Positions 15 through 60,719 of a DNA stretch of 64,000 nucleotides are shown in pieces. The DNA comes from Oscillospiraceae bacterium (lineage in GTDB: Bacteria; Bacillota; Clostridia; Oscillospirales; CAG-382). The first letter of the stretch is position 1. Each line of letters begins with the position of its first letter. The stretch is from the NCBI GenBank assembly GCA_015065165.1, contig SVQU01000009.1, positions 66 through 64,065 on the forward strand, given 5' to 3'. The translations under genes were made by a program, and so were the position numbers. Under the pieces are notes generated by a model. The model was not told the origin of the DNA. It worked only from the letters and a program-made list of their open reading frames with translations, and did not search any database.

Positions 15-89
15 TGGCAGCGGAATAGGGATTCGAACCCCAACAAACAGAGTCAGAGTCTGTCGTGCTAACCGTTACACAATTCCGCT
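15..89 (-). tRNA. tRNA-Gln (anticodon CUG)
   Basis: The reverse complement folds by eye into a 75-nt cloverleaf. Acceptor stem AGCGGAA/TTCCGCT. Anticodon stem ACAGA/TCTGT with 7-nt loop C-T-CTG-A-C. T arm TGGGG-TTCGAAT-CCCTA. Discriminator G plus encoded CCA. Confidence 0.8.
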
Positions 90-3209: not shown

Positions 3210-4013
3210 TCACGAACGGGCTAAGCAATTAAGCAGTCGTTCTCTGTCATCGGGGGCAGGGAGCCACGTATAACCAATTTCACCATATTCCTCTCCCAGC
3301 TTTTCCAAACCGTCAAGAGTTATATATCCCGTAGCGTCATAGCGAAGTTTGTATAGTCGCTTAAAGTCCGCATACTTTGAAATATCTGCGTCGGGAGCAA
3401 GATTTTGGGCGTGCTCACGGAATTTATCTTCAAATTCATCTTTAAATTCTTCCGACCAAATGTCAATATTGGAATAATCTAAAACCTCGGCGTGATACTT
3501 AATTTGTAGATATTTGTCGTCCACGGGAATAAACCCAACGGATTCGAGGATTTCGTCCTTTTGGCTTAATTTATTTTCTAATATATTCAGTCCTTCATCA
3601 GAAACGTCCGTTGTGAAGAACGTAATTCCTACGTAATAATATACGTTTGTTTTGTCAAGGGAGGGTTCGTGGTCAAATAACAAGTGTGAGATACCTTGCC
3701 CGGTTATTTCACAGCTGTACCATTCGTTTATCCCCCCGCCGCTATGCTCAAGGACTTGAGGCTCCCACGTATAGTATTGGTACTTGCCGGTGAAATAAGC
3801 CACTTTTTCGGGTATAGCAGGTGTGGTTTCGGGTTCGCTGCTTTCTTCGGAGGATTCAACGGAACTTTCAAGGCTTTCGGTTTCACTTTCCGCAACCGAG
3901 CTTGATGAAATTTCGCTTGAAATATTACTTGACGAATCGCCCGTGCCCTTGCAGGACACCAAAGCCGAGAAACACATTACAATACAAAGAATTAATGCGA
4001 TTCTTGATTTCAT
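3210..4013 (-). CDS. putative lipoprotein, function unknown
   Basis: 267-aa ORF with a signal peptide and lipobox 'SALVSC', followed by a Ser/Glu-rich low-complexity linker. No recognisable catalytic motif. Confidence 0.6.
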   Translation of the reverse strand: MKSRIALILCIVMCFSALVSCKGTGDSSSNISSEISSSSVAESETESLESSVESSEESSEPETTPAIPEKVAYFTGKYQYYTWEPQVLEHSGGGINEWYSCEITGQGISHLLFDHEPSLDKTNVYYYVGITFFTTDVSDEGLNILENKLSQKDEILESVGFIPVDDKYLQIKYHAEVLDYSNIDIWSEEFKDEFEDKFREHAQNLAPDADISKYADFKRLYKLRYDATGYITLDGLEKLGEEYGEIGYTWLPAPDDRERLLNCLARS

Positions 4014-4024
4014 ATAAATTCCTC

Positions 4025-5929
4025 CTATTTTATGTTAGAAGTATGTTTAATCCATGCTGCGCCGTATAGAATATCGTGATAATCAACGGAATTTTGCTTT
4101 TTTAGCTTTTTTATGACAAGATAATATTCAATATTACTTTCGGGAACAAACGTTACTTTTTCTAAATTATTATTTACGCTGATACTTCGGTAAATATAGG
4201 TATAGTCGTTTGGGTCTACGTAAAGACTTTTGTCAAACGTAGCAATACCCATTTGAATTCTTGGAACTATATAAATATCCAAATCTGGCAAAGGTGTATC
4301 CACATCGGGGGCAAAATTGCCGTGTCCTGCGCTTGAAAACATGGTGCGTTTTAAGAAGTTCATAGAAACGGTAACCTTTTGACCTTTTTGAAGCGCCCCA
4401 AGCGGGATGATATCTGTATCTTCGGTGGAGGTTATGGTACCGCTTACGTACGTGCCGCCATTTATTAAATAGGTTGCATTCGAAGCGTTTGCTATGCCGG
4501 CGCCATATTGATGATATCCGGTATCGTCAGTATTATAGTTGTGTTGAGTGTTTTCGGTTTTTTGTAATACAGAACAAGTTAATATAGCCTTTGTTAAATC
4601 CATAGCCGTTAAAAGTTCGGGCTCCAACGAACATAACGTTGCAACCATTCCGGCTATTTGTGGCGCGGCGAAACTTGTGCCGTTAAAAGCTTCTTCGGGA
4701 TTTGTGGAAATGGAAGGAATGAGTATATTGCCACCATAAGAGCAAATATCGGGTTTGTAGGGGCGATCTTCGTTTGTATTATAAGCCGATCTCGGAACGG
4801 TGTCGTCGGAGAATGAACTGCTTTGTACGTAATACCATTGCATATCATCGCTGTATGAGGCGGTATTTTGATCATCGACAGCGCCTACAGTGATTGCGTT
4901 ATATGCCATCGCGGGAAGAGCCACTTTGTTTCTGCCGTGATTTCCGCTTGCAATCACTATATGAACAGAATGGTTATACGCTATATGATCTATCCATTTT
5001 GCATATGACCAATATCTGTTTGAAGAATTTTCGTCTCCGCTGCTCATGTTAATTACATTCACGCCTTGCGTCAACAACCATTCGATCCTTAACACCATAT
5101 TGCCATACGTATCACAAGATGCGCTATATAAATGTTCAAATCCTTTTGCAAAACCATAATTTGGGTCAACCATTATGGATGCAACTGCCGTAGCGTGGGG
5201 TTTTACTTCTGCGCTAGATGATTGAAATGTGATTTTTTCACTAAGAGCAGCCAACACACTGTTGTTCAAATCAGGACGCCCTGTTTCCAACATACCGAGC
5301 TTAATACCTTGTCCGCCGTACCCCAATAAATATGGGAACCCTATATTTGTATTCGTATAAGCCAAGGAAGCGCAGTCTTCCATCTCTATATCACCGCGAA
5401 CCAATGATGAAACTTTATCATTTCTTGCCACGTTAAGGGCCTCGGATTTTGTAAGACTGCATATCAAAATCGGTGAATATTCGCTTATATAGGTAACCTC
5501 TCCGCATTTGGAAAGTTTTTCGGCGACCGCGGTATTGTGCTCTAAATATATTTCACGGGCAATACGGCGGTTTTCCATAATTTCAGCTTGTTTTTCTTCG
5601 ATTCTTTCCAATCTTTCTTCCAGCGAAACTTTAGTTGACGAGAGATTGGAGTTGATAATGTCATCGAGATTAACGATTGAACCCTCTTTTGTTAAGCTTG
5701 ATGAGGTTTTAGGTACAGCTTTTTGATATTCCTCGGTGGCAGTATCGTTAAGCCAAACTATAACGTCGGTTTTTTCGCTGCTGCTTCTTTGGTTATATAC
5801 AGCCATAAGGTCATCGGAAATTTTTGAATATGCTAATTGAACCTCTGCGGATGCTATGGGTGAAACTGACAAAATAAGTAAAACAGCGCAAAGCATAATA
5901 GAAATATATGCAATTTTTTTATGTTTCAT
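4025..5929 (-). CDS. secreted subtilisin-like (S8 family) serine peptidase
   Basis: Start trimmed to 'MKHKKIAYISIML...' (AAAGGA RBS upstream). Signal peptide ending 'ASAEV'. S8 motif order: 'GMLETGRPDL' (Asp-position box), 'KPHATAVASIM' (His box), 'INMSSGD' (oxyanion Asn), 'NGTSFAAPQIAGMVA' (Ser box). Confidence 0.8.
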   Translation of the reverse strand: MKHKKIAYISIMLCAVLLILSVSPIASAEVQLAYSKISDDLMAVYNQRSSSEKTDVIVWLNDTATEEYQKAVPKTSSSLTKEGSIVNLDDIINSNLSSTKVSLEERLERIEEKQAEIMENRRIAREIYLEHNTAVAEKLSKCGEVTYISEYSPILICSLTKSEALNVARNDKVSSLVRGDIEMEDCASLAYTNTNIGFPYLLGYGGQGIKLGMLETGRPDLNNSVLAALSEKITFQSSSAEVKPHATAVASIMVDPNYGFAKGFEHLYSASCDTYGNMVLRIEWLLTQGVNVINMSSGDENSSNRYWSYAKWIDHIAYNHSVHIVIASGNHGRNKVALPAMAYNAITVGAVDDQNTASYSDDMQWYYVQSSSFSDDTVPRSAYNTNEDRPYKPDICSYGGNILIPSISTNPEEAFNGTSFAAPQIAGMVATLCSLEPELLTAMDLTKAILTCSVLQKTENTQHNYNTDDTGYHQYGAGIANASNATYLINGGTYVSGTITSTEDTDIIPLGALQKGQKVTVSMNFLKRTMFSSAGHGNFAPDVDTPLPDLDIYIVPRIQMGIATFDKSLYVDPNDYTYIYRSISVNNNLEKVTFVPESNIEYYLVIKKLKKQNSVDYHDILYGAAWIKHTSNIK

Positions 5930-6416: not shown

Positions 6417-7964
6417 ATGGACAATCCTATTTTAATTGGCATCATTGTGGGTGTCATCGCTGCCGCCTTAGGTTTCTTAATAGGCTATGTTTTACGCAAG
6501 AAGCTTGCCGAAAAATCCATCGGAAGCGCAGAAGCAGAGGCTAAAAGGATAATCGAGGACGCTACAAAAGCCGCAGAAACGGCGAAGAAAGAAAAGCTCG
6601 TTGAAGCAAAGGAAGAAGCTCTTAAAATTAAGAACGATACCGAACGCGAGCTTAAAGAACGCAGAAACGACCTTCAACGTATGGAGCGCAGAACCATTCA
6701 GAAGGAAGAAAATCTGGACAAAAAGTATGAAGCTCTGGAAAAGAAAGAGGAAGTACTTAACGAAAAAATTCGTGAAAACGAAGAATTGAAAACCAAAAAC
6801 GAAGAACTCGTTGCTCAGCAATCCGAGGTATTACAGAAAATTTCGGGTATGTCTGTTGAGGATGCACGCGCGATGCTTATCGAGCGTGTGGAAAGTGAAG
6901 CAAGACACGAAATGGCGATGAAGCTGCTTGAGGTTGAGCAGGAATGCAAGGACAAAGCAGAAGAATCCGCCAAGAACATAATTGCGTTGGCAATCCAGCG
7001 TTGCGCTGCCGACAGTGTTTCGGAAGCCACCGTTTCGGTTGTTGACCTTCCCAGCGACGAAATGAAGGGTAGAATTATCGGTAGAGAGGGCAGAAATATC
7101 CGCGCTATCGAAACGCTTACGGGGGTTGACCTTATTATCGACGATACGCCCGAGGCTATTGCGATTTCCACCTTCGACCCTGTTCGCCGTGAAGTTGCAA
7201 GAATGACTTTGGAAAAACTTATCTCCGACGGCAGAATTCACCCCTCCAGAATTGAGGAAACCGTTGAAAAGAGCCGTAAAGAGGTTGAAGCGGTTATTAA
7301 GAAAGAGGGCGAACAAGCCACCTATGAAACCGGTGTTCACGGTATCAATCCCGAGCTTATTAAACTTCTCGGTAGATTGAAATACCGCACAAGCTACGGT
7401 CAGAACGTGCTTAAGCACTCCATCGAGGTTGCGCATATCGCAGGTATGATTGCGGCTGAATTGGGTGTGGACGTTAACCAGGCGAAGCGCGCAGGCTTGC
7501 TGCACGATATCGGTAAGGCAATGACACACGAAATCGACGGATCTCACGTTCAGATTGGTGTTGACGTTGCAAGAAAATATAAAGAAAGCCGCGAGATTGT
7601 TCACGCTATCGAGGCTCACCACGGCGACGTAGAGCCCAACACCCTTGTTGCTATGATTGTTCAGGCGGCAGACGCAGTTTCTGCGGCACGTCCCGGCGCA
7701 AGACGTGAAAATCTCGAATCCTACATTAAACGCTTGCAGAAGCTTGAGGAAATCGCAACAAGCTTTAAGGGCGTTGAAAAATCCTTTGCAATTCAGGCGG
7801 GCAGAGAAGTTCGTATTATGGTTAAGCCCGACGAGGTGAACGACGACGAAATGGTATTTATCGCCCGTGATATTGCAAAGAAGATTGAAGAAGAGCTTGA
7901 ATATCCCGGACAGATTAAGGTTAACCTTATTCGCGAAATGCGTCAGGTAGATTACGCGAAGTAA
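6417..7964 (+). CDS. rny: ribonuclease Y
   Basis: 515-aa ORF with an N-terminal TM helix, a Lys/Glu-rich coiled coil, KH motif '[15 protein letters not shown]' and HD motif '[10 protein letters not shown]'. GGAGG RBS. Confidence 0.95.
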
Positions 7965-8153
7965 ACGCTACGCTACGCTTCGCTATCGCCCGAAAACACT
8001 TATTTTCGGGCGGATTTGCGCCTTCGTGCGCTTAACCCTAAAAATGCAAGCATTTTCAGGGAACCCATTTACTCGCGCCGAATTTGTGCATAAATGTCCA
8101 AATTCGCGAAGGCGTAAGGTATATTATCCAAGGCACGTGTCCTTGGATAATAT
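7965..8153 (-). repeat. structured interspersed repeat, copy D (family 'S')
   Basis: On the minus strand it shows the same ordered blocks as copies A-C. These are hairpin H0 (8121-8153), ATACCTTA, helix P1 (8107-8114 / 8019-8026), hairpin P2 (8079-8106), GCGCGAG box, hairpin CCCTGAAAAT..ATTTTTAGGG (8036-8061), hairpin H4 (7987-8012) and tail ..AGCGAAGCGTAGCG. The tail ends at 7965, directly against the rny stop codon (7962-7964). Confidence 0.7.
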
Positions 8154-8226
8154 GAATTTTAATTGTATTTGCTTTATTGTATTTTTTGTTGATGCTTTTA
8201 ACGGTATCAGCGATTAGATTGGAGTA

Positions 8227-11450: not shown

Positions 11451-11483
11451 ATCCCTTTGAAATACACAGAAAGAGGTAAAACA

Positions 11484-12293
11484 ATGAGCGAATGTACTCA
11501 CGATTGCTCCAGCTGTAGCGCAAACTGCGCCAGCCGCGACCAAAAACAAATTATACAAACCGAAAAGCTCCGCGAGGGCAGTAAAATCGGCAAGGTTATT
11601 GCCGTTGTCAGCGGTAAGGGCGGTGTTGGTAAATCCCTTGTAACCTCCCTTTTGGCGGTTAACGCCCAGCGTGAGGGTAAAAGAGTTTGTATCCTCGATG
11701 CAGACATAACAGGCCCCTCTATCCCCAAGATTTTCGGCGTAAAGGCGGGGGTTGAAAGCGACGGCGAGGCAATGATGCCCGCTGTTTCCCAAACGGGTAT
11801 TAAAATCATGTCCCTTAACCTGCTTCTTCCCAACGAAAGCGACCCCGTTGTATGGCGCGGTCCCGTTATCGGCGGTGCGGTAAAGCAGTTCTGGACCGAC
11901 GTAAACTGGGGCGAAAACGACGTTATGTTTATCGATATGCCTCCCGGAACGGGCGACGTGCCTTTAACGGTGTTCCAATCCTTGCCCGTTGACGGTATGG
12001 TTATCGTAACCAGCCCTCAGGATTTGGTTTCGATGATTGTGGGCAAGGCTGTGAGAATGGCAGAGCTTATGAACAAGCCTATACTCGGCTTGGTGGAAAA
12101 CTATTCCTATTTTAAATGCCCCAACTGTGAAGAAAAGCATTATATCTACGGCGAAAGCAAGGTTGATGCGGTTGCAGAGGCTCACGGCATTAAAAAGGTT
12201 GCCAAGCTTCCCATCGACCCTTCAATTGCGGCGGCTTGCGACGGCGGTATGATAGAACTCTATAAGGGCGACCTTTTGAACGACCTTATTTAA
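11484..12293 (+). CDS. Mrp/NBP35 (ApbC) family iron-sulfur cluster carrier ATPase
   Basis: Start trimmed to ATG 11484 (AGAGG RBS). Cys-rich N-terminus 'CTHDCSSCSANC', deviant Walker A 'VVSGKGGVGKS' and a 'CPNCEEKH' motif. Confidence 0.88.
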   Translation: MSECTHDCSSCSANCASRDQKQIIQTEKLREGSKIGKVIAVVSGKGGVGKSLVTSLLAVNAQREGKRVCILDADITGPSIPKIFGVKAGVESDGEAMMPAVSQTGIKIMSLNLLLPNESDPVVWRGPVIGGAVKQFWTDVNWGENDVMFIDMPPGTGDVPLTVFQSLPVDGMVIVTSPQDLVSMIVGKAVRMAELMNKPILGLVENYSYFKCPNCEEKHYIYGESKVDAVAEAHGIKKVAKLPIDPSIAAACDGGMIELYKGDLLNDLI

Positions 12294-21923: not shown

Positions 21924-22142
21924 GGGTCGTCGAGGACGCCGACCCCTACAATTCTGTTTGAAACGTATTCGAAAAAACAAAGATACATCTAATTGAAAAG
22001 AATATGCTTCGCTCATTCGTAGCTTTTTAGTTATATTGAATGCTTACATTTTGATTCTGTAGGGAACGGCGTCCCCGACGTTCCGTTTTTTAACATAAGA
22101 TATACCAAAACAAAAAAGTAGGGGCGATTCACGAATCGCCCG
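21924..22142. repeat. REP-like palindromes (families 'TGTAGGG..GGCGTCC(T/C)CGAC' and 'GGGGCGATTCNNGAATCGCCC')
   Basis: GGGTCGTCGAGGACGCCGACCCCTACA (21924-21950), TGTAGGGAACGGCGTCCCCGACGTTCCG (22058-22085) and GTAGGGGCGATTCACGAATCGCCCG (22118-22142). Related copies occur at 44037-44060 and 49790-50039. Confidence 0.65.
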
Positions 22143-27713: not shown

Positions 27714-27904
27714 ATTTTTCGGCGACCTGTGATTTACCCCACAAAATTTCATTTTGCGGGGGCCCCGTCGCGTCGAAAAATACACCTTAGAGTGCTGAGG
27801 ATTCGGACAACGAGCGTTAGCGAGGCGCACGAATCCTGCGCGAGCGAACGGCACTCACAAAAGACAATCAAAAACAAGTGTTTTTGATTGAGAGCGTAAG
27901 CGAC
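27714..27904 (+). repeat. structured interspersed repeat, copy A (family 'S')
   Basis: H0 arms ATTTTTCGGCGAC/GTCGCGTCGAAAAAT enclose a CCCCACAAAAT..ATTTTGCGGGG module. Then follow ACACCTTAGAG, P1 (27790-27795/27851-27856), P2 (27798-27805/27830-27837), GCGCGAGCGAACGG, H4 (27865-27890) and tail AGAGCGTAAGCGAC. The tail ends at 27904, directly against the argS stop codon (27905-27907, opposite strand). Confidence 0.7.
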
Positions 27905-29599
27905 TTAAATTTCCTCTGTTCTTCTCATACCAAGCAAATCAAGGCATCTGCCCAAAATGTTGCGGGTTGCGGAGGTAAGAGCAAGACGGAACTGTTCGGT
28001 TTCACCGTCCGAGCCGAGAATTCTGCAATTGTGATAGAACTGGTTATAAAGTGTACAAACACCAAGAGCAAAACGGGAAATATGGCTGGGCTCGTAATCA
28101 TTTGCGGCACGCTCTACAACGTTTTCAAATTCGCAAAGCTTACGGATAAGCTCGGTTTCTTCACCAACGGGGGTGTAGGATTTCCAATCGCCCTCCATAT
28201 TGCCGCGGCGCAAAACGCTGGCGGCACGTGCATAGGTATATTGAACGTAAGGACCTGTGTTGCCCTCGAAGGAAAGTGCGCTTTCCCAGGTGAAGTTGGT
28301 ATCCTTAATACGGCTGTTGGAAAGTGCACCGAAGATAACCGCGCCCAAGCCTACCGCCTCGGCGATATCCTTGTTGTCCTCTCCTGCCTTCTTTTCGTCG
28401 ATAATAGCCAATGCCTTTGCAACGGCTTCGTCGAAAACGTCGTTAAGCAAAATAATGTTGCCTGTACGGGATGCAAGCTTTTCGCCCCCGAAGCTCATTG
28501 TGCCATAGGGGATGTGAACCAAATCCTTTGCCCATTCCTTGCCCATAAGCTCGGTAACCTTAAACCATTGGGCAAAGTGCAAGGACTGACCTGCGCTGGT
28601 AACGTAAGCGCAAATATCAAAATTATAGGTGTTGTATCTATAGTTTGCCGCTGCAATATCGCGGGTGGGATAAAGGGTACTGCCGTCGCGCTTAAGGATA
28701 AGTGCGGGAGGCATATTATATTCCGAAAGGTCAACTATAGATGCGCCGTCGTCGATTTTAAGAAGCTCTTTTTCTCTAAGCTCATCTACAATAGCGGGCA
28801 TTTTGTCGGTATAAAGGCTTTCGCCGTCCCAAACGTCAAAATCAATGCCCAAGCGTTTGTAGGTCTGGGTATATTCGCGAAGGGAAATATCCTTAAACAA
28901 TTGCCATATTTCAAGATATTCCTTGTTGCCGTTTTCAAGTTCGCGGAAGGCGGCACGGGCTTGGTCGTTAAGAGAGGGGTCTTTTTCCGCCTCCTTGCCG
29001 AACATAACGTAAATACGTTCAAGCTCCTTAATGCCCTCTTTTTCAAGCTGTTCCTTGCTTGACCACTTTTTAAAAGCCACAATCTGCTTGCCGTTTTGTG
29101 TGCCCCAGTCGCCAAGATAGTTTAAAGCTACGGTTTTATAACCGCAGAATTTATAAATGTTTCTAACGGCGTTACCGATAACGGTTGTGCCCAAATGTCC
29201 CAAATGAAAACGCTTTGCGATGTTGGGGGAGGAGAAGTCCAAAACAATGGTTTTGTTTTCTCCCATTTTGGTAAGGTTGGGATATTCGTCGGAAAGCAAG
29301 CCTTCCAAATCCGAAATATATTTGTCCCCCGCAAAGAAGAAGTTAAGATAAGGGCCTGTGGGTGCAATTTTTTCTATACCGTCAACAGCGTTGAATCTTT
29401 CTGCAAGCTCGGCAGAAATCATCGCGGGATTACCCCTTAAAAGCTTTGAAAGCCTAAAGCAGGGCAATGCAAGGTCGCCAAGCTTGGAATCTGCAGGGGT
29501 TTCAAGAAAATCCGCCACCTCGTCTGCCGAAAGGGATGCGCCCTTGGAAGCAACATATTCCGCAACGGTTTCGCATATAATTGTTTTTATATCCGCCAT
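27905..29599 (-). CDS. argS: arginine--tRNA ligase
   Basis: The track ORF is 568 aa. I prefer the second ATG ('MADIKTII...', 29599) because GGAGA lies 5 nt upstream. Class I motifs 'SSPNIAKRFHLGHLGTT' (HIGH-like) and a DALR anticodon-binding C-terminus. Confidence 0.93.
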   Translation of the reverse strand: MADIKTIICETVAEYVASKGASLSADEVADFLETPADSKLGDLALPCFRLSKLLRGNPAMISAELAERFNAVDGIEKIAPTGPYLNFFFAGDKYISDLEGLLSDEYPNLTKMGENKTIVLDFSSPNIAKRFHLGHLGTTVIGNAVRNIYKFCGYKTVALNYLGDWGTQNGKQIVAFKKWSSKEQLEKEGIKELERIYVMFGKEAEKDPSLNDQARAAFRELENGNKEYLEIWQLFKDISLREYTQTYKRLGIDFDVWDGESLYTDKMPAIVDELREKELLKIDDGASIVDLSEYNMPPALILKRDGSTLYPTRDIAAANYRYNTYNFDICAYVTSAGQSLHFAQWFKVTELMGKEWAKDLVHIPYGTMSFGGEKLASRTGNIILLNDVFDEAVAKALAIIDEKKAGEDNKDIAEAVGLGAVIFGALSNSRIKDTNFTWESALSFEGNTGPYVQYTYARAASVLRRGNMEGDWKSYTPVGEETELIRKLCEFENVVERAANDYEPSHISRFALGVCTLYNQFYHNCRILGSDGETEQFRLALTSATRNILGRCLDLLGMRRTEEI

Positions 29600-40348: not shown

Positions 40349-40394
40349 AATAACAAATCCTTTTTAAGTTAGATTTGAAGAATCAAAACGGAGA

Positions 40395-43979: not shown

Positions 43980-44120
43980 GCGATGCGGGTGGATTCAACT
44001 TTGCAAGTCTCTTACGTGCGAGAATTTTTGGCGGTCGATTCTTGAATCGCCCTTACTCTTGCTCTCGCTGAAAATTTAATTTGTTGGGGAACACCACTAT
44101 AAATAAAAATGATAAAACAC

Positions 44121-46960: not shown

Positions 46961-49645
46961 ATGAACTTGGCAAAACGTTTAATTGCTTTGGCTGTTGTTG
47001 CGGTTTTGCTTGCTTCCTCTTGCATTTTTGTAAGTGCGGCAATGCTTACCTCCAAGGGCGGTCATAACGTAACCAGCGACGGCGCGGTAGTTTATAAAAA
47101 ATTCAGCGCTGCCGGTGCACATACCGAAGATGCAACCGTGCTTGAATTTAACCCTAAAAACGGCTATATTCCCGTTGCATTCGACGGAGCACCCACCAGC
47201 GTTGCTTCTATCCCCACCCAATACAGCACCGCTGTTAATACTTACGGCTATGAGGTTGCAGGCGTAATCAACGCAGGCTACTTCACCATGTCCACCAGCA
47301 CTCTCGAGGGTATGGTTATCACCGACGGCAAGCTTGTTGCCGCTACCAGAGGTGCGTCTACCATTGTTGCTTTCGGTAACAACGGCAGTATGGATATCGT
47401 TACCACCCAGCCTAAATATACCGTTGGTATCAACGGCAAAAGCCTCGAAAACCCCATTTGGTTCTTCAATAAGGAATATAAGGATGCAGGCTCTACCGAA
47501 AGAGGCGCTTATATGTTCTATTATGACTACAGCGCAAACGCAAAGACCTCTTATTCCGAATCCGGTACCGAAGTTCTTTTCGAAAAGCTTGACAATTCCG
47601 AGCTTTCTTACGGCGAAACCTTGGTTGGTAGAGTTGTAAGCAAAAAGACCTCTACCACAGGCAGCACCACTATCGCTAAAAACCAGTTCGTTCTTTTTGC
47701 AAAGAACGGCTCTACCTATGTAAACGAGCTTAACTCTCTTGCTGTGGGCAATAAGGTTACCATTAACATTACCGAAACCAACGCAGGCGCAGTTACCGTT
47801 ATGAACAACGCAAACAGCGTTCTTAACAATATCGACTATCTTGTTAAAGACGGTCAGAACTACACCATCGGCAAAACCTCTGTGGGCGGACATAACCCCA
47901 CAACCACCTATGCACGTTGGACTGCATACGGCGTTAAGGCAGACGGCACCTACGTATTCCTTACCACCGAAGGCGGCTCTACCGGTGTAAGCTCCCGTTC
48001 TCTTACTCTCAGAAACGTTGCCGATATCCTTATCGAGCTCGGCTGTGTAACCGCAGTTCGTCTTGACGGCGGCGGAAGTACAGGTATGTACGTTTCCAAC
48101 ACAGGCTCCGGCAACGCAGGCTGGGTTATGACGGGTCAGCGTTCTGTTGCAGATACCATTCTCGTTGTTAAGAAATCCAGTATGCACGATGCAACTCTTG
48201 AAACTAAGTTGAAATCTGCAATCGCCACCGCAAAGCAGACCGCAGGCTCTAACGCAGGTATTCTTAAAGCAATTTCCGAAGCAGAAGCAATGATTGGCAC
48301 CAACGCTACCGAAGGTCAGCTTCGTAAGGCTATCATCAGTCTTTCTCCCAAGGCAATGCTCGGCGCGGCTCTCGCAAAGTGCGACGTTTTGAACATCGGT
48401 GAATATACCGAAACCGACCTTGCGGCTCTCCGTACCGTTTACGATGCAGCAAAGGCTGTTTACAATTCCGATTCTGCTACCGATGCTCAATATTCCGCAC
48501 AGACCACCAAGGTTTACTCGGCATTGGATAAGAGCGCGAACGTTATTCTTTCCGCAGGCGCGGCTTACACCACCACCGCACCCAACCGCGGCGACGGACA
48601 CGACGACGACAAATATCGTCTTACCGACGGCACAAAGGGCGGCTTGGACCTTTCTCAGTACAGCTATTCCGGCTGGAACGTAAATTCTCTTTCCAACCGT
48701 ACCGTTAATATCGACGTAGACCTTGGCGCAGTTCAGTCCTCCAACACCTTTACCGTTTATATGGCGGCAGGTATGTGGGGTATCGGCGCACCCTCTGCTA
48801 CCTTAAGCGTTTACACCTCTACCGACGGTGTTAACTACACCTCTCTCGTAGGTACTTCTACCACCAGAACCTCTGTGGGCTCTGCTGTTGTGGGCTCCGA
48901 AACCTGCAATACCTATACCTACACCGTTAAGAGCAACTCCAACGTAAGCGCACGTTACGTTAGATTCGCCGTTAAGAACAGCGTTAACTTCACCTGGATT
49001 GACGAGGTTGAGGTTTCCCGCACCAACGGCAACGCAAGTAACGTAGTTACCAATTACACCAAGATTCAGAGCTTCAATACCAAGATTACCGCGGGCTCTT
49101 CCACCATCTTCACCCCCGATATGGGCGCGCTCACTCAGAGCAATGCAAACCACACCTGGTCCAGCAATATTATTTGCGAGCTTCAGTCCGACGGCAGCTA
49201 CGTTGTAGTTGAAAACGTAAGCTGGCATGCAGACAGCAACAAGACTATCACTCTTAAGAGCAACCAGATTATGATTTGTGCTCACAGCGATCCTACCGTT
49301 GCGGGAAGTGCTGCAAACGCATCCAACTTGGGCGCGGCGCAGGTTGGTCAGGTTCTTAAGGTTTACGGTATCGACCTTGCAAACAAAACAATCAGCGCGG
49401 CTGCATACGTTCAGTTTGAAAATCCCGCCGAGCCCGAACCCGATTATTACCTTGGCGATATTAACAACAACGGCAGCTTCGAGGCTATGGACTACAACCT
49501 TCTTAAGCGTGCATATTTCGGCGTTTACGGGTTGGCTATCGAAGCAGCGGGCGACCTTAACGGCAACGGCGAAATCGATGCAATCGACTATGCTATGCTT
49601 AAGCGCGCATACTTCGGCGTGTACCCCCTCGATTGGATTAACTAA
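46961..49645 (+). CDS. secreted phosphodiester glycosidase (NAGPA/DUF2233-like) with discoidin-like module and dockerin
   Basis: 894-aa ORF with AAGGAG RBS and a signal peptide. 'AGVINAGYF...GMVITDGKLV' and 'VTAVRLDGGGSTGMYV' fit the phosphodiester-glycosidase fold. It has a discoidin-like module ('ARYVRFAVKN..WIDEVEV'), a module shared with the GDPD paralogs, and C-terminal dockerin repeats 'GDINNNGSFEAMDYNLLKRAYFGVY' / 'GDLNGNGEIDAIDYAMLKRAYFGVY'. Confidence 0.7.
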   Translation: MNLAKRLIALAVVAVLLASSCIFVSAAMLTSKGGHNVTSDGAVVYKKFSAAGAHTEDATVLEFNPKNGYIPVAFDGAPTSVASIPTQYSTAVNTYGYEVAGVINAGYFTMSTSTLEGMVITDGKLVAATRGASTIVAFGNNGSMDIVTTQPKYTVGINGKSLENPIWFFNKEYKDAGSTERGAYMFYYDYSANAKTSYSESGTEVLFEKLDNSELSYGETLVGRVVSKKTSTTGSTTIAKNQFVLFAKNGSTYVNELNSLAVGNKVTINITETNAGAVTVMNNANSVLNNIDYLVKDGQNYTIGKTSVGGHNPTTTYARWTAYGVKADGTYVFLTTEGGSTGVSSRSLTLRNVADILIELGCVTAVRLDGGGSTGMYVSNTGSGNAGWVMTGQRSVADTILVVKKSSMHDATLETKLKSAIATAKQTAGSNAGILKAISEAEAMIGTNATEGQLRKAIISLSPKAMLGAALAKCDVLNIGEYTETDLAALRTVYDAAKAVYNSDSATDAQYSAQTTKVYSALDKSANVILSAGAAYTTTAPNRGDGHDDDKYRLTDGTKGGLDLSQYSYSGWNVNSLSNRTVNIDVDLGAVQSSNTFTVYMAAGMWGIGAPSATLSVYTSTDGVNYTSLVGTSTTRTSVGSAVVGSETCNTYTYTVKSNSNVSARYVRFAVKNSVNFTWIDEVEVSRTNGNASNVVTNYTKIQSFNTKITAGSSTIFTPDMGALTQSNANHTWSSNIICELQSDGSYVVVENVSWHADSNKTITLKSNQIMICAHSDPTVAGSAANASNLGAAQVGQVLKVYGIDLANKTISAAAYVQFENPAEPEPDYYLGDINNNGSFEAMDYNLLKRAYFGVYGLAIEAAGDLNGNGEIDAIDYAMLKRAYFGVYPLDWIN

Positions 49646-49697: not shown

Positions 49698-49728
49698 CTG
49701 TTTTGAAAATATTGTAAGGAAACCTAAT

Positions 49729-50118
49729 GTCATCCCAAGCGAAGGTGATTTTTAATCACCGTAGCCGAAGGATATAGGCAACCTTTTTCGGTCGGTCGAG
49801 GACGCCCGACCCTACAAATAATGTTAAAACGGGCGATTCGTGAATCGCCCCTACCATCTTGAGAGTGGGCAATCTTATTGCCGTAGCCGAAGGATATAGA
49901 ATGATGAAGAATGAAAAATGAAAAATGAAAAATGAAGAATGAAGAATGAAAAATTGAGGTAGGCTTTCGGATTTTTTCCTCCGAAAGCCATTTTTATTTT
50001 AAAATATTGTAGGGGTGGGCGTCCTCGACCACCCGCAGGATAACGTTACGTATAAACCCACGTTAAAGCTTGTATCCTTCGATTGCGTCGGTTGCGCCGC
50101 CTCGGCTTGGGATGACAG
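49729..50118. repeat. dense cluster of REP-like palindromes and short repeats
   Basis: GTCATCCCAAGCGAAGG..CCGTAGCCGAAGGATATAG occurs at 49729-49777, partially at 49867-49900 and inverted at 50071-50118. GGTCGGTCGAGGACGCCCGACCCTACA is at 49790-49816. GGGCGATTCGTGAATCGCCCCTAC is at 49831-49854. TGTAGGGGTGGGCGTCCTCGACCACCC is at 50008-50034. Confidence 0.7.
49899..49954. repeat. 7-bp tandem repeat A(G/A)AATGA, ~8 units
   Basis: AGAATGA TGA AGAATGA AAAATGA AAAATGA AAAATGA AGAATGA AGAATGA AAAATTG, read directly from the sequence. Confidence 0.8.
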
Positions 50119-53686: not shown

Positions 53687-56038
53687 ATGAAAAAATCCAT
53701 CAGATTGCTTTCGGTTTTGTTGGCTGCCGTTATGATTACCGCCGTAATACCCTTCGGCGCAATGGCAACCACCACCGCTTTGAAAAACAAAACAGTTCTT
53801 GCCTTTGGCGATAGCCTTACGGCATTGGGCAACCCCACCTACGTAGGATACCTTTCGGATTTGTTGGGTATCAACGTTATTAACGCGGGTGTCGGCGGTA
53901 ATATGACCGCCCACGGTAAAGCGCGTTTCCAAGCCGACGTTCTCGATAAGAATCCCGACGTGGTTCTTATGTGCTTCGGTATGAACGACCAAGCCTGCAG
54001 CCTTCCTTCGGGCTATTGCTGGTCCTCTCCCGAGGTTTACCGTGCGGATATGACCTATTTCATCACCGAGCTTCAAAAGACCGGTTGCGACGTAATCCTT
54101 ATCACTCCCAACCCTGTTTGTGATGAAACCGGTTATTACGTTGCTCCCGAAGACTATACCTATAACTATCCCGGTTCGTTGGATAAGTTTGTAAAGGTTA
54201 TGCGCGAGCTTGCCCTTGAATTCGATTGCACTCTCATTGATATGCACCAAGAATTTATGACGGTTAAGGCAAGTAATATTGCTACCTATAAGAGCTATTA
54301 CGCCCCCAACGACGGTATTCACCAAAGCCAGCTTGGCAGACAGTTCTGGGCAGAAAAGGTTAACGCTCATCTTAACGCTGTTTATGATAACGTAAACAAA
54401 AAGACCATAACCGTTAACTGCGTTGATAAAAACAATAACGTTATTAAAACCTATAGCTATGTTGGCGCAAACGGTGCAAACGTTGTAATTGCGCCCCCCG
54501 CTATTCCCGCCTTCTCTACCGATAGTACGGCTGTGTCGGCTAAATATGGTACAGACAGCACCGTTACCTTCACTTTCGAGGCTAAAATCACTCCTTTGTT
54601 AGAGGCTGTTGAAAATATCGACGAATCCAAATACAGCGCAACCGCACTTTCTCTCATTCGCAAGGAATATAACACCGCGAAGAGCCTTCTTGCCGCTGAA
54701 AATATCGATTTTGAAGCGTTGGAAAAATGCGCTCAGGTTCTTGAATATTACCTTTCGGTAAACGGCGACGGTACCCTTGTTATCTCCTTGGGTAAGAGCT
54801 ATACCAGACCTGAACCCAACTATTATAAATGGGACAGCGCAACCGGCGGCCCCAGCACCGAGCTTAACGAGATGTATTCCGACGACTTTATTCGTCTTAC
54901 CGACGGTAAGAAGGGTATAGTTCCTGCCAATACAAGCGCATATTCCGCATGGCAGAGCAACGCCGATATCGTTGTGGATCTTGGCGAGGAAACTGCTTCC
55001 AACGTTTACCGCGCTTATTTCGCTTCCGGAATGTGGGGCGTTGCCGCACCTGCCGATATGAAGATTGCTTATTCCAACGATAAGACCAATTGGACTTATA
55101 TCGAAAAGGCATTTGTTAAGACCGATGTTGTTTCGGGCGGCGCCGACGCGTGGAGCTCTACCGAATATTCGGTTACCGCAGATTCCGAAATCACTGCAAG
55201 ATATATCAAGTTCGAAATCACCAAAACAGGTTCTTTTGTATGGATGGACGAGGTTGAGGTTGCGGTTAAGGGCAACGTTGAAGAAAAGTTTAACCTTGCT
55301 TACAACAAAACCTATGAAAAATCGCCTTTGTTCAGACAAAGCAATATAACTTGGGATTGGGACGAAACCTTCCCCGAGGCATATCCCGACGAGGGCGGAA
55401 TAACCCTTACCGACGGCAAGACCAATTCCATTAACGACCTTGGCGACGGCGCTTGGGTTGGCTTTAACTCCAAGACACCTATTCTCGAAACCAACTATAA
55501 CTACATCCGTGTTGACCTTGGCGACGTTTACGGCTTGACACAGCTTGACCTCCACGTGGGCAGCAACGGTCTTGGTTACGGTATTACCGCGCCCAACGTT
55601 GAATTCTTCGTTTCCGAGGACGGCGAGACCTACACCTCTGTGGGAACTGCCAACGGCGCAAACGGCGGCGCATATACCGAGCTTCTTTCGGTTGAATGTG
55701 AGGTTAACGCCCGTTACGTAGAAGCTCGTATTACCAGCATAGGCTGGGCGTTCGTTTCTGAAATTTACGCTTATGGCGGAGATTTGTTTGACGATAAAGA
55801 GCCTACTCCCGACCCCGACCCCGATCCCGATCCCGATCCCGATCCCGTTGTTATGAAGGGCGATATTAACGGCAACGAGGAAATCGATGCGGTTGACTAT
55901 GCAATGCTTAAACGCGCATATTATGGTATTTACAGCGTGGATGTGAAGGTTGGCGATATTAACGGCAATGAAGAAATCGATTCTGTAGACTACTCGATGC
56001 TTAAACGCGCATATTACGGTATCTATCAAATTCAGTAA
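53687..56038 (+). CDS. secreted SGNH/GDSL hydrolase with two discoidin-like modules and dockerin
   Basis: 783-aa ORF with a signal peptide. SGNH blocks 'VLAFGDSLT' (I), 'NAGVGGN' (II), 'MCFGMNDQ' (III) and 'NDGIHQS' (V). Discoidin-like modules ('ARYIKFEITK..WMDEVEV', 'ARYVEARITS..FVSEIYAY'). (PD)n linker. Dockerin repeats 'GDINGNEEID(A/S)VDY(A/S)MLKRAYYGIY'. Confidence 0.8.
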   Translation: MKKSIRLLSVLLAAVMITAVIPFGAMATTTALKNKTVLAFGDSLTALGNPTYVGYLSDLLGINVINAGVGGNMTAHGKARFQADVLDKNPDVVLMCFGMNDQACSLPSGYCWSSPEVYRADMTYFITELQKTGCDVILITPNPVCDETGYYVAPEDYTYNYPGSLDKFVKVMRELALEFDCTLIDMHQEFMTVKASNIATYKSYYAPNDGIHQSQLGRQFWAEKVNAHLNAVYDNVNKKTITVNCVDKNNNVIKTYSYVGANGANVVIAPPAIPAFSTDSTAVSAKYGTDSTVTFTFEAKITPLLEAVENIDESKYSATALSLIRKEYNTAKSLLAAENIDFEALEKCAQVLEYYLSVNGDGTLVISLGKSYTRPEPNYYKWDSATGGPSTELNEMYSDDFIRLTDGKKGIVPANTSAYSAWQSNADIVVDLGEETASNVYRAYFASGMWGVAAPADMKIAYSNDKTNWTYIEKAFVKTDVVSGGADAWSSTEYSVTADSEITARYIKFEITKTGSFVWMDEVEVAVKGNVEEKFNLAYNKTYEKSPLFRQSNITWDWDETFPEAYPDEGGITLTDGKTNSINDLGDGAWVGFNSKTPILETNYNYIRVDLGDVYGLTQLDLHVGSNGLGYGITAPNVEFFVSEDGETYTSVGTANGANGGAYTELLSVECEVNARYVEARITSIGWAFVSEIYAYGGDLFDDKEPTPDPDPDPDPDPDPVVMKGDINGNEEIDAVDYAMLKRAYYGIYSVDVKVGDINGNEEIDSVDYSMLKRAYYGIYQIQ

Positions 56039-56043
56039 AAAAC

Positions 56044-56231
56044 ATATTTTCCAAGGACAGGCGCCTTGGAAAATATACCTATGACGTTCGCGAGCTGTAA
56101 AGGGGGACCCTGAAAATCGGAAGATTTTTAGGGCATTACAGCGAGGTGCGAACGCACGAACGTCAAAAGGAAAAACGTAGTTTTTCGTCAAATCAATCAA
56201 AATGCTCGCATTTTGATTGAGAGCGTAGCGA
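56044..56231 (+). repeat. structured interspersed repeat, copy C (family 'S')
   Basis: H0 ATATTTTCCAAGG-ACAGGCG-CCTTGGAAAATAT (56044-56076), then ATACCTATG. P1 is 56083-56090/56157-56164. GCTGTAA/TTACAGC encloses CCCTGAAAAT..ATTTTTAGGG (56108-56133). H4 is 56194-56219 and the tail AGAGCGTAGCGA ends at 56231. Confidence 0.7.
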
Positions 56232-56290
56232 TAAACGCGCATATTACGGTATCTATCAAATTCAGTAAAAAACATATTTTCCAAGGACAG
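56232..56290 (+). pseudogene. orphan duplicate of the last 11 codons + stop + 3' flank of the 53687-56038 CDS
   Basis: The 59 bp at 56232-56290 are identical, base for base, to 56002-56060 ('TAAACGCGCATATTACGGTATCTATCAAATTCAGTAAAAAACATATTTTCCAAGGACAG'). Confidence 0.9.
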
Positions 56291-59500: not shown

Positions 59501-60460
59501 AATACCAATGCATATTCCGCATGGCAGAAGACCTCCGACGGCAAGATTGAAATCATTCTCGATTGCAGCAACCCTGCCCAGAGAGATACCTTCAAGGCAT
59601 ATTTCGCCTCTAACAGCATTTGGGGTGTTAAGGCGCCTGCAAATATGGAGGTTTCCTATTCTACCGATAACAAAACCTTTACACAGTTGGGCGGCGCTAC
59701 TCTTACCAAGCGTCAAATTCCCGACGTGGGCGAATTGAGCGACAACGTTTGGAGCCGTTGGGAATACACCGTAAAAGCTCCTTCGGTTGTTACCGCAAGA
59801 TATTATAAGTTCACCATCTATTTCGAGGGCAGCTTCATTTGGATTGATGAAATCGAAGCCGCTAACGAAAGCAGCGATCTTATTTATATTAATAAGGTTA
59901 ACAACAGAATTAATGCAGGCGAAGCGGGTATTTATACCTCCTCCTTCGGCGAATTGAACAAGCAAACCGCAAACAACATTTGGACAGTGAATATCACTGC
60001 AAAATGGGATGCTTCCAAGGATGCGTACGTGGTTAGCAACGTAGCCTTCGGCGACGGCACCGACAAGCCCGTAACTATTGCTTCGGATGAAATTTATATC
60101 GCTGTTCACGAATGGGAATTGAACACTCTTGATGAAATGCCCGTTGTCGGCAGTGCTCATAACTTGAATCTTGCAAAGGTTGCACAGGTTGGCGACGTGG
60201 TTGAATTCTACGGTATCGATACCGATACTTGGGAGTTCGGCCCTGCACCCAGCATTAAGTTTGTAAGCGAATCCAACAAGGGCGACCTCAACGACAACGG
60301 CGAAATCGATGCTGTTGACTACTCCTTGCTGAAGCGTGCATACTTTGGTATCTTTGCCAGTAATAGCAGTGTTTCTGATATTAATGGCAACGGTGAAGTG
60401 GATGCGGTAGACTACTCCTTGCTTAAACGTGCATACTTCGGTATTTACAGCCTTGCATAA
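56519..60460 (+). CDS. secreted multidomain glycerophosphodiester phosphodiesterase (GDPD) with C-terminal dockerin (paralog 2)
   Basis: 1313-aa ORF with the same architecture as 12461-16363; the N-terminal ~130 aa are nearly identical by eye. Canonical GDPD core 'GHRGNPGVAAENTIESFQAAYENGGDVFEIDVECTKDGVIVILHDGTLTRTT'. Discoidin-like module ('ARYYKFTIYF..WIDEIEA'). Dockerin repeats 'GDLNDNGEIDAVDYSLLKRAYFGIF' / 'DINGNGEVDAVDYSLLKRAYFGIY'. Confidence 0.88.
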   Translation: MKRTLSFIVTLAMLLSLFTVFAVTPASAATVIGNNSPAIRANVGETITLSNYSVTFDGDTTATSNVTWKNGSSTITTFKPTAKGVTTLTATSGSKTKNIYVVAKNSSDTEYVLYEATMSNFSSVSALTSAGWTFTNSARASKGSDGALVLGVTGKWDATSAYLPSWLGDFGNYKFSANVKFSAFAESDKSRWFSLMTRTENRTCTAHYTHAAFRGNNTASNGIEFAERYATDSGSDWNVALKTPGTYTDLTDAYRDFSILSVDNTFRVDIAGKQMIYVAPSSYLSLSKKQVYKGHLGFQASGCTIAIKSVKITLEDTVPEEIIDTKLIYNSYHDADNLVNPIANIQRVSSVTAANLDKLSVAYIDLTTGVNAQTAFKTCIDNKVVPTFYATTTAHADAIIAASTALGSTDATVVSNNKTVLNRIRVHSTAYPIRTGLVVDISTQMADGTMTDYEADEIRRDVRAIPATFILIESKYATKQAVAELQEMALAVWVNVTSTPNTDAFNIEAMKAITSGANGLVSNSAAGVSSLIKTHIQARAFTRTPITIGHRGNPGVAAENTIESFQAAYENGGDVFEIDVECTKDGVIVILHDGTLTRTTTYTGSTSIRNMTWAEAKKYHVLDLNGNSTGKPIPTLKEVLDWAKGKDIKIFVEFKDNSTTCVNGTMADIVERGMTQQVDIISFNTTALKLARTAVPGISTGYLNGNDITGSTYSMALKLFEGRIEPAQREWSTVNCGSYNNQVTNLAVQVATDRGMTMWPWTYGYSNTSAAFFDCPDGITTDNMEVMKDMVKTVHAKNFVMLPGQTYGGGALTSETYGNTLTSVSANNTIVSVVAGDSVKVENGKLVAVKEGISTVVMAVKSWTYLGKEYIVYSQPVQVRVGTGDPAVLEPLVEMAKSATINSLSESDLATLREYCDKAVALINSSNPKEAEVKATAEALNNIIAKFIVEKYIAPAPNYYKWDSATGGPSTELNETYVDDGVRLVDGKKSHVAGNTNAYSAWQKTSDGKIEIILDCSNPAQRDTFKAYFASNSIWGVKAPANMEVSYSTDNKTFTQLGGATLTKRQIPDVGELSDNVWSRWEYTVKAPSVVTARYYKFTIYFEGSFIWIDEIEAANESSDLIYINKVNNRINAGEAGIYTSSFGELNKQTANNIWTVNITAKWDASKDAYVVSNVAFGDGTDKPVTIASDEIYIAVHEWELNTLDEMPVVGSAHNLNLAKVAQVGDVVEFYGIDTDTWEFGPAPSIKFVSESNKGDLNDNGEIDAVDYSLLKRAYFGIFASNSSVSDINGNGEVDAVDYSLLKRAYFGIYSLA

Positions 60461-60493
60461 TAGAAAACCGTAAAAGTATAAAATAATATAACC

Positions 60494-60719
60494 ATAAAAG
60501 CCGAGGACACGTGATCCTCCCCGCAAAATGTAATTTTGCGGGGACCCCATTACTCGGCTTTTATACCTTAGAGGTTCGCAAGTTTGGACAAGATGCAAAG
60601 CATCGCGCACAAACTTGGCGCGAGCAACGGACCCTAAAAACGCCCGCGTTTTAAAGGGGTAGTGTCCGAACCTCAAAAAACGCACGAAAATAGGTGTTTT
60701 CGTGCGAGAGCGAAGCGAC
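60494..60719 (+). repeat. structured interspersed repeat, copy B (family 'S')
   Basis: H0 arms ATAAAAGCCGAG/CTCGGCTTTTAT (60494-60564) enclose ACACGTGATCC plus a CCCCGCAAAAT..ATTTTGCGGGG module. Then follow ACCTTAGAG, P1 (60571-60578/60667-60674), P2 (60579-60586/60610-60617), GCGCGAGCAACGG, hairpin ACCCTAAAAAC..GTTTTAAAGGGG, H4 (60681-60706) and tail AGAGCGAAGCGAC ending at 60719. Confidence 0.7.

Follow-up and report, generated by a model that had tools for sequence, protein, structure and literature searches.

A family of modular structured intergenic repeats docked on gene ends in uncultured Ruminococcus-like Clostridia

The subject here is an interspersed repeat, termed S, of which four copies lie in a 64,000-nucleotide (nt) stretch of Oscillospiraceae bacterium DNA (contig SVQU01000009.1 of assembly GCA_015065165.1, positions 66 to 64,065 of the forward strand), referred to in full as the window. 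S is a repeat family whose members, of ~170-230 nt, are intergenic, structured, modular and non-coding, and whose hosts are uncultured Ruminococcus-like Clostridia from ruminant hindguts. The family is new and undescribed, yet it is best filed as being of a known kind, that of structured modular intergenic repeats, and our preferred reading, held with a little better than even confidence, is that it is akin to repetitive extragenic palindromes (REPs), BOX, SPRITE and bcr1 elements, with a terminator cassette joined to a core folded on the antisense strand and with spread by recombination or by an enzyme acting in trans. A reading of the window from its letters, the sequence-only reading, had proposed copies A, B, C and D, and all four are present where it placed them, with the strands it quoted for helices P1, P2 and H4 readable directly in the sequence. 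By BLAST the copies are only 65-68% identical pairwise, and neither BLAST nor a covariance model found a fifth full copy in the 64-kb window.

Anatomy, fold and distribution

Read 5′ to 3′ on its forward strand, S has a TA[CT]AAT word in 20 of 33 copies, 2-13 nt before hairpin H0, which is of 13 bp with the loop ACATGCG. One polarity of H0, ATAAAAAT..ATTTTTAT, has the shape of a terminator in both directions, the other, ATATTTTT..AAAAATAT, has no such shape, and each polarity occurs with each type of GC core. H0 had been taken for a hairpin with arms differing between copies; a hairpin it is, but as a module it is conserved: the ACATGCG-like loop and one G·U pair are fixed, and its A/T runs come in two polarities. 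After H0 comes an invariant ACCTTA linker, then P1 (consensus GAGnnnCG/CGnnnCTC) and P2, the 8 bp of which are free to vary and are capped by GACA-[P2a hairpin]-GCA, P2a often being GCGAAGC or GCCGAAGGC. The junction core contains the invariant mini-hairpin GC[GCGA]GC: the GCGCGAG block recognized earlier as conserved is indeed so, and itself forms this mini-hairpin of 2 bp. An optional P3 (CCCTGAAAATGCTTGCATTTTTAGGG) follows it, and after the 3′ strand of P1 there is CACAAAA, one to three H4-type hairpins and a tail, GAGA-GCG(N)NAGC-GA. Each element has three GCG(N)NAGC/CCGAAGG mini-hairpin words, GCG(N)NAGC being the consensus of an ‘extraordinarily stable’ DNA mini-hairpin at G4/St-1 primase sites, ssiA and the promoters of N4 virion RNA polymerase (vRNAP) (PMC13037366). 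The hairpin-plus-tail module was not found apart from the core, all 14 stray tail-like words being ordinary coding sequence.

A search pattern built from the unpaired conserved blocks, ACCTTA-N14-16-GGACA-N3-25-GCA-N8-GCGCGAG, has three matches in the window (A, B and D) against 0 expected by chance. Scanned over one genome per GTDB species it gave 26 loci, 25 of which clearly contain an S element and are designated here by L numbers. They come from 15 metagenome-assembled genomes (MAGs) labelled Clostridia, Eubacteriales or uncultured Ruminococcus, with buffalo, sheep, goat and roe deer hindgut as sources, though nine of the 15 MAG names are sample codes only that do not state a host. Covariance model R1, run on the window and the 25 loci (~237 kb), returned 42 matches at an E-value of at most 1, ~40 of them real copies, several of which do not fit the search pattern; the repeat is far more widespread than the window alone would suggest. 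A metagenome scan yielded one real copy and one chance match; viral contigs scanned with two patterns gave 0 matches and one chance match, and plasmids and phages searched by BLAST gave no S match.

The sequence-only reading could match S to no named RNA family, and neither an Rfam 15 family nor a match of insertion-sequence type explains it. At the Rfam gathering threshold the window has a tRNA only, and 20 loci have only OLE, tRNAs and an L10 leader, none of them on S copies. Permissive E-value scans of B, D and L007 gave Clostridiales-1 as the best match, with 14.5 bits against a threshold of 48, and the omega-RNA and HEARO-type models have no match to S. The tRNA gene in question is at window 18-89(-), scores 60.3 bits and is the window's sole Rfam match.

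That selection acts on the fold and not on the sequence had been proposed from compensatory changes in the four copies, and the proposal holds now that copies have been added, the covariation persisting both on 17 simple, independent copies in a nearly gap-free alignment and on 42 sequences. In the 17 copies 97.6% of cells in H0, P1, P2 and P2a are paired and 26 of the 34 pairs have changed on both sides; 0 of 500 shuffle controls reach any of the measures, and sliding the 3′ partners by 1-3 columns drops pairing to 30-46%. The wider alignment of 42 sequences has 95.5% of cells paired and double changes in 29 of 33 pairs. In H4 the outer four pairs form in 18 of 18 copies, and three of the four covary. 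RNAalifold, without being given the structure, recovers H0, P1 and P2, and also C61-G79 and the 2-bp stem of GC[GCGA]GC. Against dinucleotide shuffles the single window copies have z values of -4.8 (A), -6.7 (B), -6.9 (C) and -6.9 (D), with 0 of 200 shuffles folding as well. The compensatory changes between copies need one amendment, for while the covariation is real, much of it within one genome is an old pool of variants shuffled between sites and not substitution in place.

The fold is clearly strand-specific. An A·C on the forward strand would be a G·U on the other, and in the helices of the first 39 of the 42 matches the forward strand has 47 G·U against six A·C. One H0 pair is G·U in 25 copies and A-U in 13 but never G-C, and forward-strand hairpin loops are often G(CUUG)C, the complement of which was never seen. 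From the G·U excess and the loop types, the molecule that folds is the forward strand.

Gene ends and the turnover of copies

In 22 copies a convergent open reading frame (ORF) of 147-769 visible codons ends 0-5 nt past the last S stem. The stop codon is TAA in 17 of these, TGA in three and TAG in two, and in L014 and L029 the stop codon of the neighbour is inside the tail mini-hairpin. RNA genes are abutted in the same way: the tail of the L019 copy ends at the base adjoining the encoded CCA of a tRNA, and in L011 S reaches the 3′ end of OLE RNA. Because a tRNA and OLE RNA are docked on as well, the target is gene ends and not stop codons as such; on the same grounds a translation-linked cause for the adjacency to stop codons was rejected. 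The L011 arrangement, at 3964-4618(+), is a full-length OLE RNA (396 bits) with two tandem S copies directly after it on the opposite strand.

Among the Pfam-tested neighbours in the window, D is between rny and ymdB, A between argS and yebC, and B and C are after dockerin genes. Docked genes elsewhere, read from their translations, are asnS-, queA-, rplA-, rpiB-, dut-, nagB-, hsp33-, aconitase- and ABC-like. The functional unrelatedness of these neighbours led to rejection of the idea of a regulon. A riboswitch or other 5′ leader was rejected since most copies point to the 3′ end of a convergent gene and only L010:3472 precedes a co-oriented start codon.

On the strand of the neighbour the order is gene end, 13-nt linker, hairpin and (G)TTTTGTG, which is the shape of an intrinsic terminator. 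A terminator scan flags the reverse complement of H4 with its T-tract in copy A, and 12 of 18 copies have at least five A within 8 nt 5′ of H4, which is a T-tract on the other strand. In the window, native terminators are 15-25 nt from stop codons, and so the flush position is peculiar to S.

Synteny was compared between the window and the loci, and orthologous sites that are empty in one species and filled in another were found beside sites filled in both. Filled in both genomes are window A and L015, window D and L025, window C and L021, and L020 and L024. The filled versus empty comparisons are window 40349-40394 with L022, window 11451-11489 with L025, L018 with two L032 copies, and L029 with L013. 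Where S is absent, the site is a short operon spacer, of 20-46 nt. That at 40349-40394 is a 46-nt spacer for which L022 holds S flush with the orthologous ABC-transporter stop codon, and that at 11451-11489 is a 39-nt operon spacer for which L025 holds S, the window junction reading TTATACAAT. A TACAAT-like word is exactly at the junction in two of the four empty sites. Among contigs with the exact protein, the places shown for the gene C product share one 481-nt spacer, and none of them is an empty allele.

At orthologous filled sites the invariant loops are kept, the helices and modules are wholly different and the coding flanks are 80-87% identical, with core identity, at 58-76%, being that of the family background. 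The most similar cores are at unrelated loci in different MAGs (L022 and L023, 96%; L016 and L015, 94%). Median identity is 0.68 within a genome versus 0.67 between genomes, figures on which concerted evolution within genomes was rejected. L016 and L015 have H0 and core in common but differ in their H4 modules; L016 and L023 have H4 in common but differ in their cores. The copies at L010 3083-3231(-) and L023 3085-3182(-) have flanks that are ~95% identical and are different S variants from P2 to the tail, and in the L010 copy the two P1 strands no longer pair, which marks it as a fresh chimera. From these comparisons, copies of S and their modules are exchanged or re-inserted over short spans of time.

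Window copies, their flanks and other repeats

Copy D occupies 7965-8153(-), from H0 to tail, in the rny-ymdB spacer and scores 74.5 bits with the covariance model. All its parts are on the minus strand: a TACAAT word (8162-8167) 8 nt 5′ of H0; H0 itself, ATATTATCCAAGG / ACACGTG / CCTTGGATAATAT (8121-8153); the invariant single-stranded ACCTTA (8115-8120); and the core (8019-8114), in which 8107-8114 pairs with 8019-8026 as P1 and 8099-8106 with 8079-8086 as P2, the cap GACATTTATGCA is at 8087-8098, the mini-hairpin GCGCGAGT at 8071-8078 and the optional P3 hairpin at 8036-8061. The H4 hairpin, CGCCCGAAAA / TAAGTG / TTTTCGGGCG, is at 7987-8012, and the tail ATAGCGAAGCGTAGCGTAGCGT (7965-7986), with GCGNAGC mini-hairpins and AGCGW repeated, is 0 nt from the rny stop codon at 7962-7964.

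Copy A, at 27714-27904(+), abuts the argS stop codon (27905-27907). Its H0 arms, 27714-27726 and 27767-27781, have a nested hairpin between them, and ACCTTA (27784-27789) leads to P1 (27790-27797 with 27849-27856) and P2 (27798-27805 with 27830-27837), followed by GCGCGAGC at 27838-27845, H4 at 27865-27890 and the tail at 27891-27904. The sequence-only reading was right about the existence of a P1 helix here, but it is of 8 bp (GAGTGCTG/CGGCACTC, with one U·G) and not six. Copy B, at 60494-60719(+), has nested hairpins between H0 arms 60494-60505 and 60553-60564, then ACCTTA (60565-60570), P1 (60571-60578 with 60667-60674), P2 (60579-60586 with 60610-60617), GCGCGAGC (60618-60625), P3 (60632-60658), H4 (60681-60706) and the tail (60707-60719).

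The block order that had been ascribed to all four copies is common to A, B and D, but copy C, at 56044-56232(+) and with 61.8 bits in the covariance model, is rearranged. It has H0 (56044-56076), ACCTAT (56077-56082) and P1 (56083-56090 with 56157-56164), but a GACA...GCA-capped P2 is absent and a GCTGTAA/TTACAGC stem (56094-56100 with 56136-56142) encloses the CCCTGAAAAT hairpin as P3 (56108-56133). An extra hairpin precedes H4 (56194-56219), and the tail is at 56220-56232.

B and C are flanked by long direct repeats, unremarked in the sequence-only reading, whose source is the tail of the upstream dockerin gene. Those of B, of 82 and 90 bp, are at 60425-60506(+) and 60720-60809(+), with ~88% identity. 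Those of C are perfect over 59 bp, the left one (56002-56060(+)) comprising dockerin-gene tail, 3′ untranslated region (UTR) and left H0 arm, and the right one (56232-56290(+)) being followed by the native terminator AAGGACAGAGG..CCTCTGTCCTT. Orthologous L021 has the same duplicated-tail arrangement, its repeats being identical to each other within that genome and different from those of the window, from which the duplication must be old, with its repeats being kept alike genome by genome. In the locally aligned flanks of 34 copies there are only four long irregular duplications, of 36-90 bp (B; C, equivalent to L021; L029 twice), with the rest at shuffle level. Long target-site duplication as a rule was rejected, since it would apply to four of 34 copies and B, C and L021 trace to one old event in orthologues and paralogues; the long flanking repeats look like local tandem duplications that include gene ends. 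A reading of the dockerin-tail repeats in terms of a diversity-generating retroelement was also rejected, the differences not being A-specific and a reverse transcriptase being absent nearby. In L029, at 4650-5730 around rpiB, the order is 5′ rpiB fragment, S, full rpiB, S, 3′ rpiB fragment, S, which points to tandem amplification of gene plus element with later deletions.

After the duplicated gene tail at B there is a solo H0-like hairpin, ATAAAAGCCGAGG CGTATGT CCTCGGCTTTTAT, at 60797-60829(+) with 27.4 bits. It is of bidirectional-terminator shape and serves as the native terminator there, and its arms are those of the H0 of copy B while the loop differs; it would appear that an H0 module and an ordinary bidirectional terminator can each turn into the other. 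Tandem arrays of a second hairpin family (GGGGTCCCCGAAAAnGCTTGCnTTTTTGGGG) are present 3′ of some S cores, where they replace or extend H4 (L007 2600-2800; L008 3105-3170; L025 1300-1385).

A separate REP-like unit, GTAG plus palindrome (GTAGGGGCGATTCACGAATCGCCC), is at window 22118-22141(+), 49831-49854(-) and, with three mismatches, 44033-44056(-). It is also at L007 2395-2418, L010 3365-3388, L013 4107-4130, L022 7374-7397 and L025 4897-4920, in which five loci it is ~55-150 nt 5′ of S copies on the opposite strand. It is an identical 24-mer across MAGs with genes only ~75-85% identical, and this conserved GTAG REP suggests that these genomes have an enzyme of the REP-associated tyrosine transposase (RAYT) type acting on single-stranded DNA (ssDNA). 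Of the window ORFs tested against Pfam, those beside S copies or close to the REPs at 22118 and 44033 include no RAYT, the REP at 49831 being outside the ORFs covered.

Two further repetitive stretches of the window are of note. At 49728-50117, in the 650-nt gap after the dockerin gene 46961..49645, there are nested inverted repeats with arms of 29, 18 and 14 nt, one arm reading GTAGGGGTGGGCGTCCTCGACC with a GTAG head, and an (AATGA/AGAATGA)n run at ~49895-49950; the stretch resembles a further mosaic of repeat modules. At 63127-63407 thirteen tandem 15-nt units within a coding region are likely to code for a Ser/Glu/Pro-rich linker in a large surface protein.

Likeness to known systems and competing explanations

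The sequence-only reading left the choice between a structured RNA and a non-autonomous element recognized as ssDNA. The fold is clearly on one strand and the copies are clearly dynamic; S fails the defining tests of classical miniature inverted-repeat transposable elements (MITEs) and palindrome-associated transposable elements (PATEs). Its statement that no transposase, reverse transcriptase or recombinase is next to any copy is borne out for the window by the Pfam-tested neighbours, and no model-defined S copy in ~270 kb has an ORF-sized gap inside it. With regard to MITEs, the 5′ end (TA[CT]AAT..H0) and the 3′ end (..GAGAGCGWAGCGA) are not reverse complements in any of ~40 copies, and the flanks of 34 copies have no fixed-length target-site duplication. 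With regard to PATEs, H0 (13 bp, loop ACATGCG) shares no sequence with H4 and the tail; on the insertion word the picture is mixed, TA[CT]AAT being in 20 of 33 copies but at 2-13 nt from H0, a similar word being at two of four empty sites, and duplication being absent. Integron attC sites were rejected, as RYYYAAC...GTTRRRY is absent from the ends of the aligned copies and the neighbours are syntenic housekeeping genes, not cassettes, and readings as group I or II intron, retron, attC or riboswitch fell on size, absent motifs, absent reverse transcriptase or position.

The dispersed SPRITE repeat, described in 2011 work, is terminator-like and near gene 3′ ends (PMC3184786). S is similarly dispersed and intergenic, of ~100-200 nt, and by function it has what a SPRITE-like element should have, a terminator-like hairpin and a bias to gene 3′ ends (the 22 copies, the tRNA and OLE RNA). 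It differs in its additional covarying core of 110 nt, which has invariant loops and is on the other strand from the terminator reading, in being flush (0-5 nt) with gene ends and in belonging to a different phylum-level lineage, the comparison being by description and not by sequence. BOX of pneumococci, boxA-boxB(n)-boxC, is modular and transcribed, and is described as a MITE-like element whose end modules are complementary and which an insertion sequence (IS) transposase is believed to mobilize (PMC3184786). It and S are both modular with variable module number, non-coding, stably folded and without a transposase of their own, and the modularity of S, with its one to three H4/tail modules, optional P3 and nested hairpins in H0, is comparable; unlike in BOX the ends of S are not complementary, and its modules are exchanged at short invariant linkers. 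The bcr1 repeat of the Bacillus cereus group, of ~155 nt, has a multi-hairpin fold kept by compensatory changes, 5-bp direct repeats and transposon-like ends (PMC3184786). Like it, S is an interspersed repeat of Firmicutes with compensatory changes that keep a multi-hairpin fold and with a distribution that is not conserved between related genomes, but it is without the 5-bp flanking direct repeats or any regular target duplication, and it docks on gene 3′ ends.

With REPs and bacterial interspersed mosaic elements (BIMEs), which in Gammaproteobacteria are associated with RAYT, S has in common the extragenic 3′-end niche, mosaic hairpin clusters and a fold recognizable as a single strand, and both may act as terminators or mRNA-end structures. 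A REP unit, however, is a GTAG-headed palindrome of 20-40 nt, while S is a ~200-nt multi-helix structure whose modules have no GTAG head and with which the separate REP co-occurs. With IS200/IS605 PATEs and the omega-RNA regions of TnpB, S shares strand specificity, hairpins near both ends, no terminal inverted repeats or target duplication, and a structured scaffold followed by unique flank sequence; it departs from them in its dissimilar end hairpins, a cleavage-word spacing that is not fixed, the absence of tnpA or tnpB seen in the window and no Rfam match. On these comparisons S would best be filed as working like SPRITE, BOX, bcr1 and BIMEs while failing the defining tests of MITE, REP, PATE, attC and every Rfam family.

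In the reading we prefer, the reverse complement of H4 with TTTTGTG is a putative Rho-independent terminator of the neighbour gene, on the strand of that gene, and as a terminator cassette S may be tolerated, or be of use, in operon spacers and where genes end. Folded on the antisense strand, the conserved core would be recognized by a common trans-acting factor, and spread and turnover would be by recombination between the short invariant linkers and/or by a trans-acting enzyme, not by cut-and-paste of the DDE type. As to the nature of the folded core, RNA is somewhat likelier, at slightly above an even chance, with transient ssDNA a substantial though clearly lesser possibility. Invariant loops with covarying helices, the G·U excess and the fixed G·U, CUUG and GNRA-type loops, and the position of B, C and L021 within 3′ UTRs favour RNA, and the GTAG-type REP that is an identical 24-mer in the window and five loci, next to S in those loci, favours ssDNA. 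GC skew was uninformative for orienting the copies relative to replication.

Several observations weigh against parts of this scheme. One third of the copies have a weak T-tract on the gene strand, copy D is inside the rny-ymdB operon where termination would harm, and flush docking is not explained by a terminator role alone. A mobility enzyme was not found in ~270 kb, with Pfam scans limited to the window ORFs. Scans revealed no sigma-70 promoter and there is no -35 in 33 aligned upstream regions; moreover, in about half of the copies H0 has an A-run/stem/T-run shape that should stop a forward transcript from TA[CT]AAT. The forward RNA has no terminator of its own, which counts against RNA. 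For the GNA triloops and for tail loops such as GTCA, GTTA and GCTA, the DNA rule GCG(N)NAGC (PMC13037366) is a better fit than the RNA rule GNRA.

A serious alternative, though on balance an unlikely one, is that S copies are paralogous small RNA genes, each with its own promoter (TA[CT]AAT as -10) and transcribed toward the end of the neighbour gene. The RNA would be a scaffold binding protein or ligand, and its 3′ part (H4 and tail, perhaps with read-through) would be antisense to the 3′ UTR or end of the neighbour, giving genome-wide cis-antisense or 3′-end control with mobility secondary. Single-stranded ACCTTA, GGACA..GCA and GCGCGAGCG are invariant while helices covary, the G·U evidence and the G(CUUG)C and GNRA-type loops are of the forward strand, a TAnnnT-type hexamer is 7-13 nt before H0 in about two thirds of the copies and the forward strand of B, C and L021 is certainly within mRNA 3′ UTR. 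Variants are 94-99% conserved between MAGs where coding flanks are ~80%, a pattern of paralogous RNA genes such as tRNAs. Against this, a -35 box is lacking and the hexamer-H0 spacing varies over 2-13 nt; in about half of the copies the terminator-shaped H0 is just past the putative start, and no terminator ends the forward RNA. The neighbours have no common function, the variants differ between orthologous sites, an oddity if the regulator were locus-specific, and there is the chimeric L010 copy with its broken P1.

Bolder, and to be entertained only tentatively, is the reading that the S core is a new structured nucleic-acid class, a three-way junction with the invariant GC[GCGA]GC and a GGACA/GCA internal loop. 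Each genome would have dozens of paralogous versions of it, every one docked precisely on an opposite-strand gene 3′ end (mRNA, tRNA or OLE RNA), either as scaffolded cis-antisense RNAs controlling transcript 3′ ends genome-wide, or as a mobile element recognizing gene ends in an undescribed way via ssDNA mini-hairpins.

We consider it improbable that S is a non-autonomous derivative of a single-strand transposon (HUH/Y1, IS200/IS605-like or RAYT-driven) with its hairpins read in folded ssDNA and with insertion 3′ of a TACAAT-like word without duplication, the core possibly being a leftover omega-RNA-like guide scaffold with the flanking gene end as guide. Strand-specific folding, hairpins at both ends with no terminal inverted repeats or regular target duplication, the TACAAT-like word exactly at the junction in two of four empty sites and the DNA-type GCG(N)NAGC mini-hairpins would all suit such an origin, as would near-identical cores at unrelated loci in different MAGs, and the GTAG REP adjoining five S copies as an identical 24-mer suggests a RAYT-like enzyme. 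The left- and right-end hairpins bound by one TnpA are related in sequence, however, and H0 is unrelated to H4 and tail. The distance from TACAAT to H0 is variable, conserved sequence extends upstream of the word in several copies, and constraint spans the whole 110-nt core and not the ends alone. No TnpA, TnpB or RAYT is next to any window copy, omega-RNA and HEARO-type Rfam models do not match, and the orientation antisense to the neighbour gene goes against the lagging-template bias that genes co-oriented with replication would lead one to expect.

A DNA-level role, as a single-strand initiation or polymerase-entry signal (primase/ssi-like) or as a nucleoid or topoisomerase site of the sort proposed for BIMEs, with the mini-hairpins as key, is very improbable. 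We know of no multicopy chromosomal element with a primase/ssi-like role, the orientation of S follows the neighbour gene and not the direction of replication, the words are short and also plausible as RNA tri- or tetraloops, and docking on gene ends would be left unexplained. In favour are the three GCG(N)NAGC/CCGAAGG words per element, as at G4/St-1 primase sites, ssiA and N4 vRNAP promoters (PMC13037366), the strand-specific fold and the terminator-shaped hairpins that bracket the core and would keep it untranscribed. That S is no more than ordinary intrinsic terminators plus a few duplicated spacers of shared ancestry, with covariation from relatedness, can be given next to no credence: H0 (type I) and the reverse complement of H4 are terminator-shaped and a solo H0-like terminator exists, but the 110-nt core has invariant loops and 16 covarying base pairs and is at >25 unrelated loci in 15 species, slid-register controls collapse, and identity between copies follows neither locus nor genome.

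Structured intergenic repeats such as REP/BIME, BOX, SPRITE and bcr are known mainly from cultured Proteobacteria and Bacilli, and how they spread is mostly unsolved. S is a useful test case, with very clear covariation for such a repeat, a strand-specific fold, three stable mini-hairpin words and near-exact docking on gene ends, including those of RNA genes. For the annotation of MAGs it is worth masking or modelling, as it gives rise to falsely extended ORFs, to local duplication of gene ends and to breaks in assemblies. Should the forward strand be transcribed, S would be a large new class of non-coding RNA absent from Rfam; if S acts as ssDNA, it would point to a mechanism of mobility that targets gene ends.

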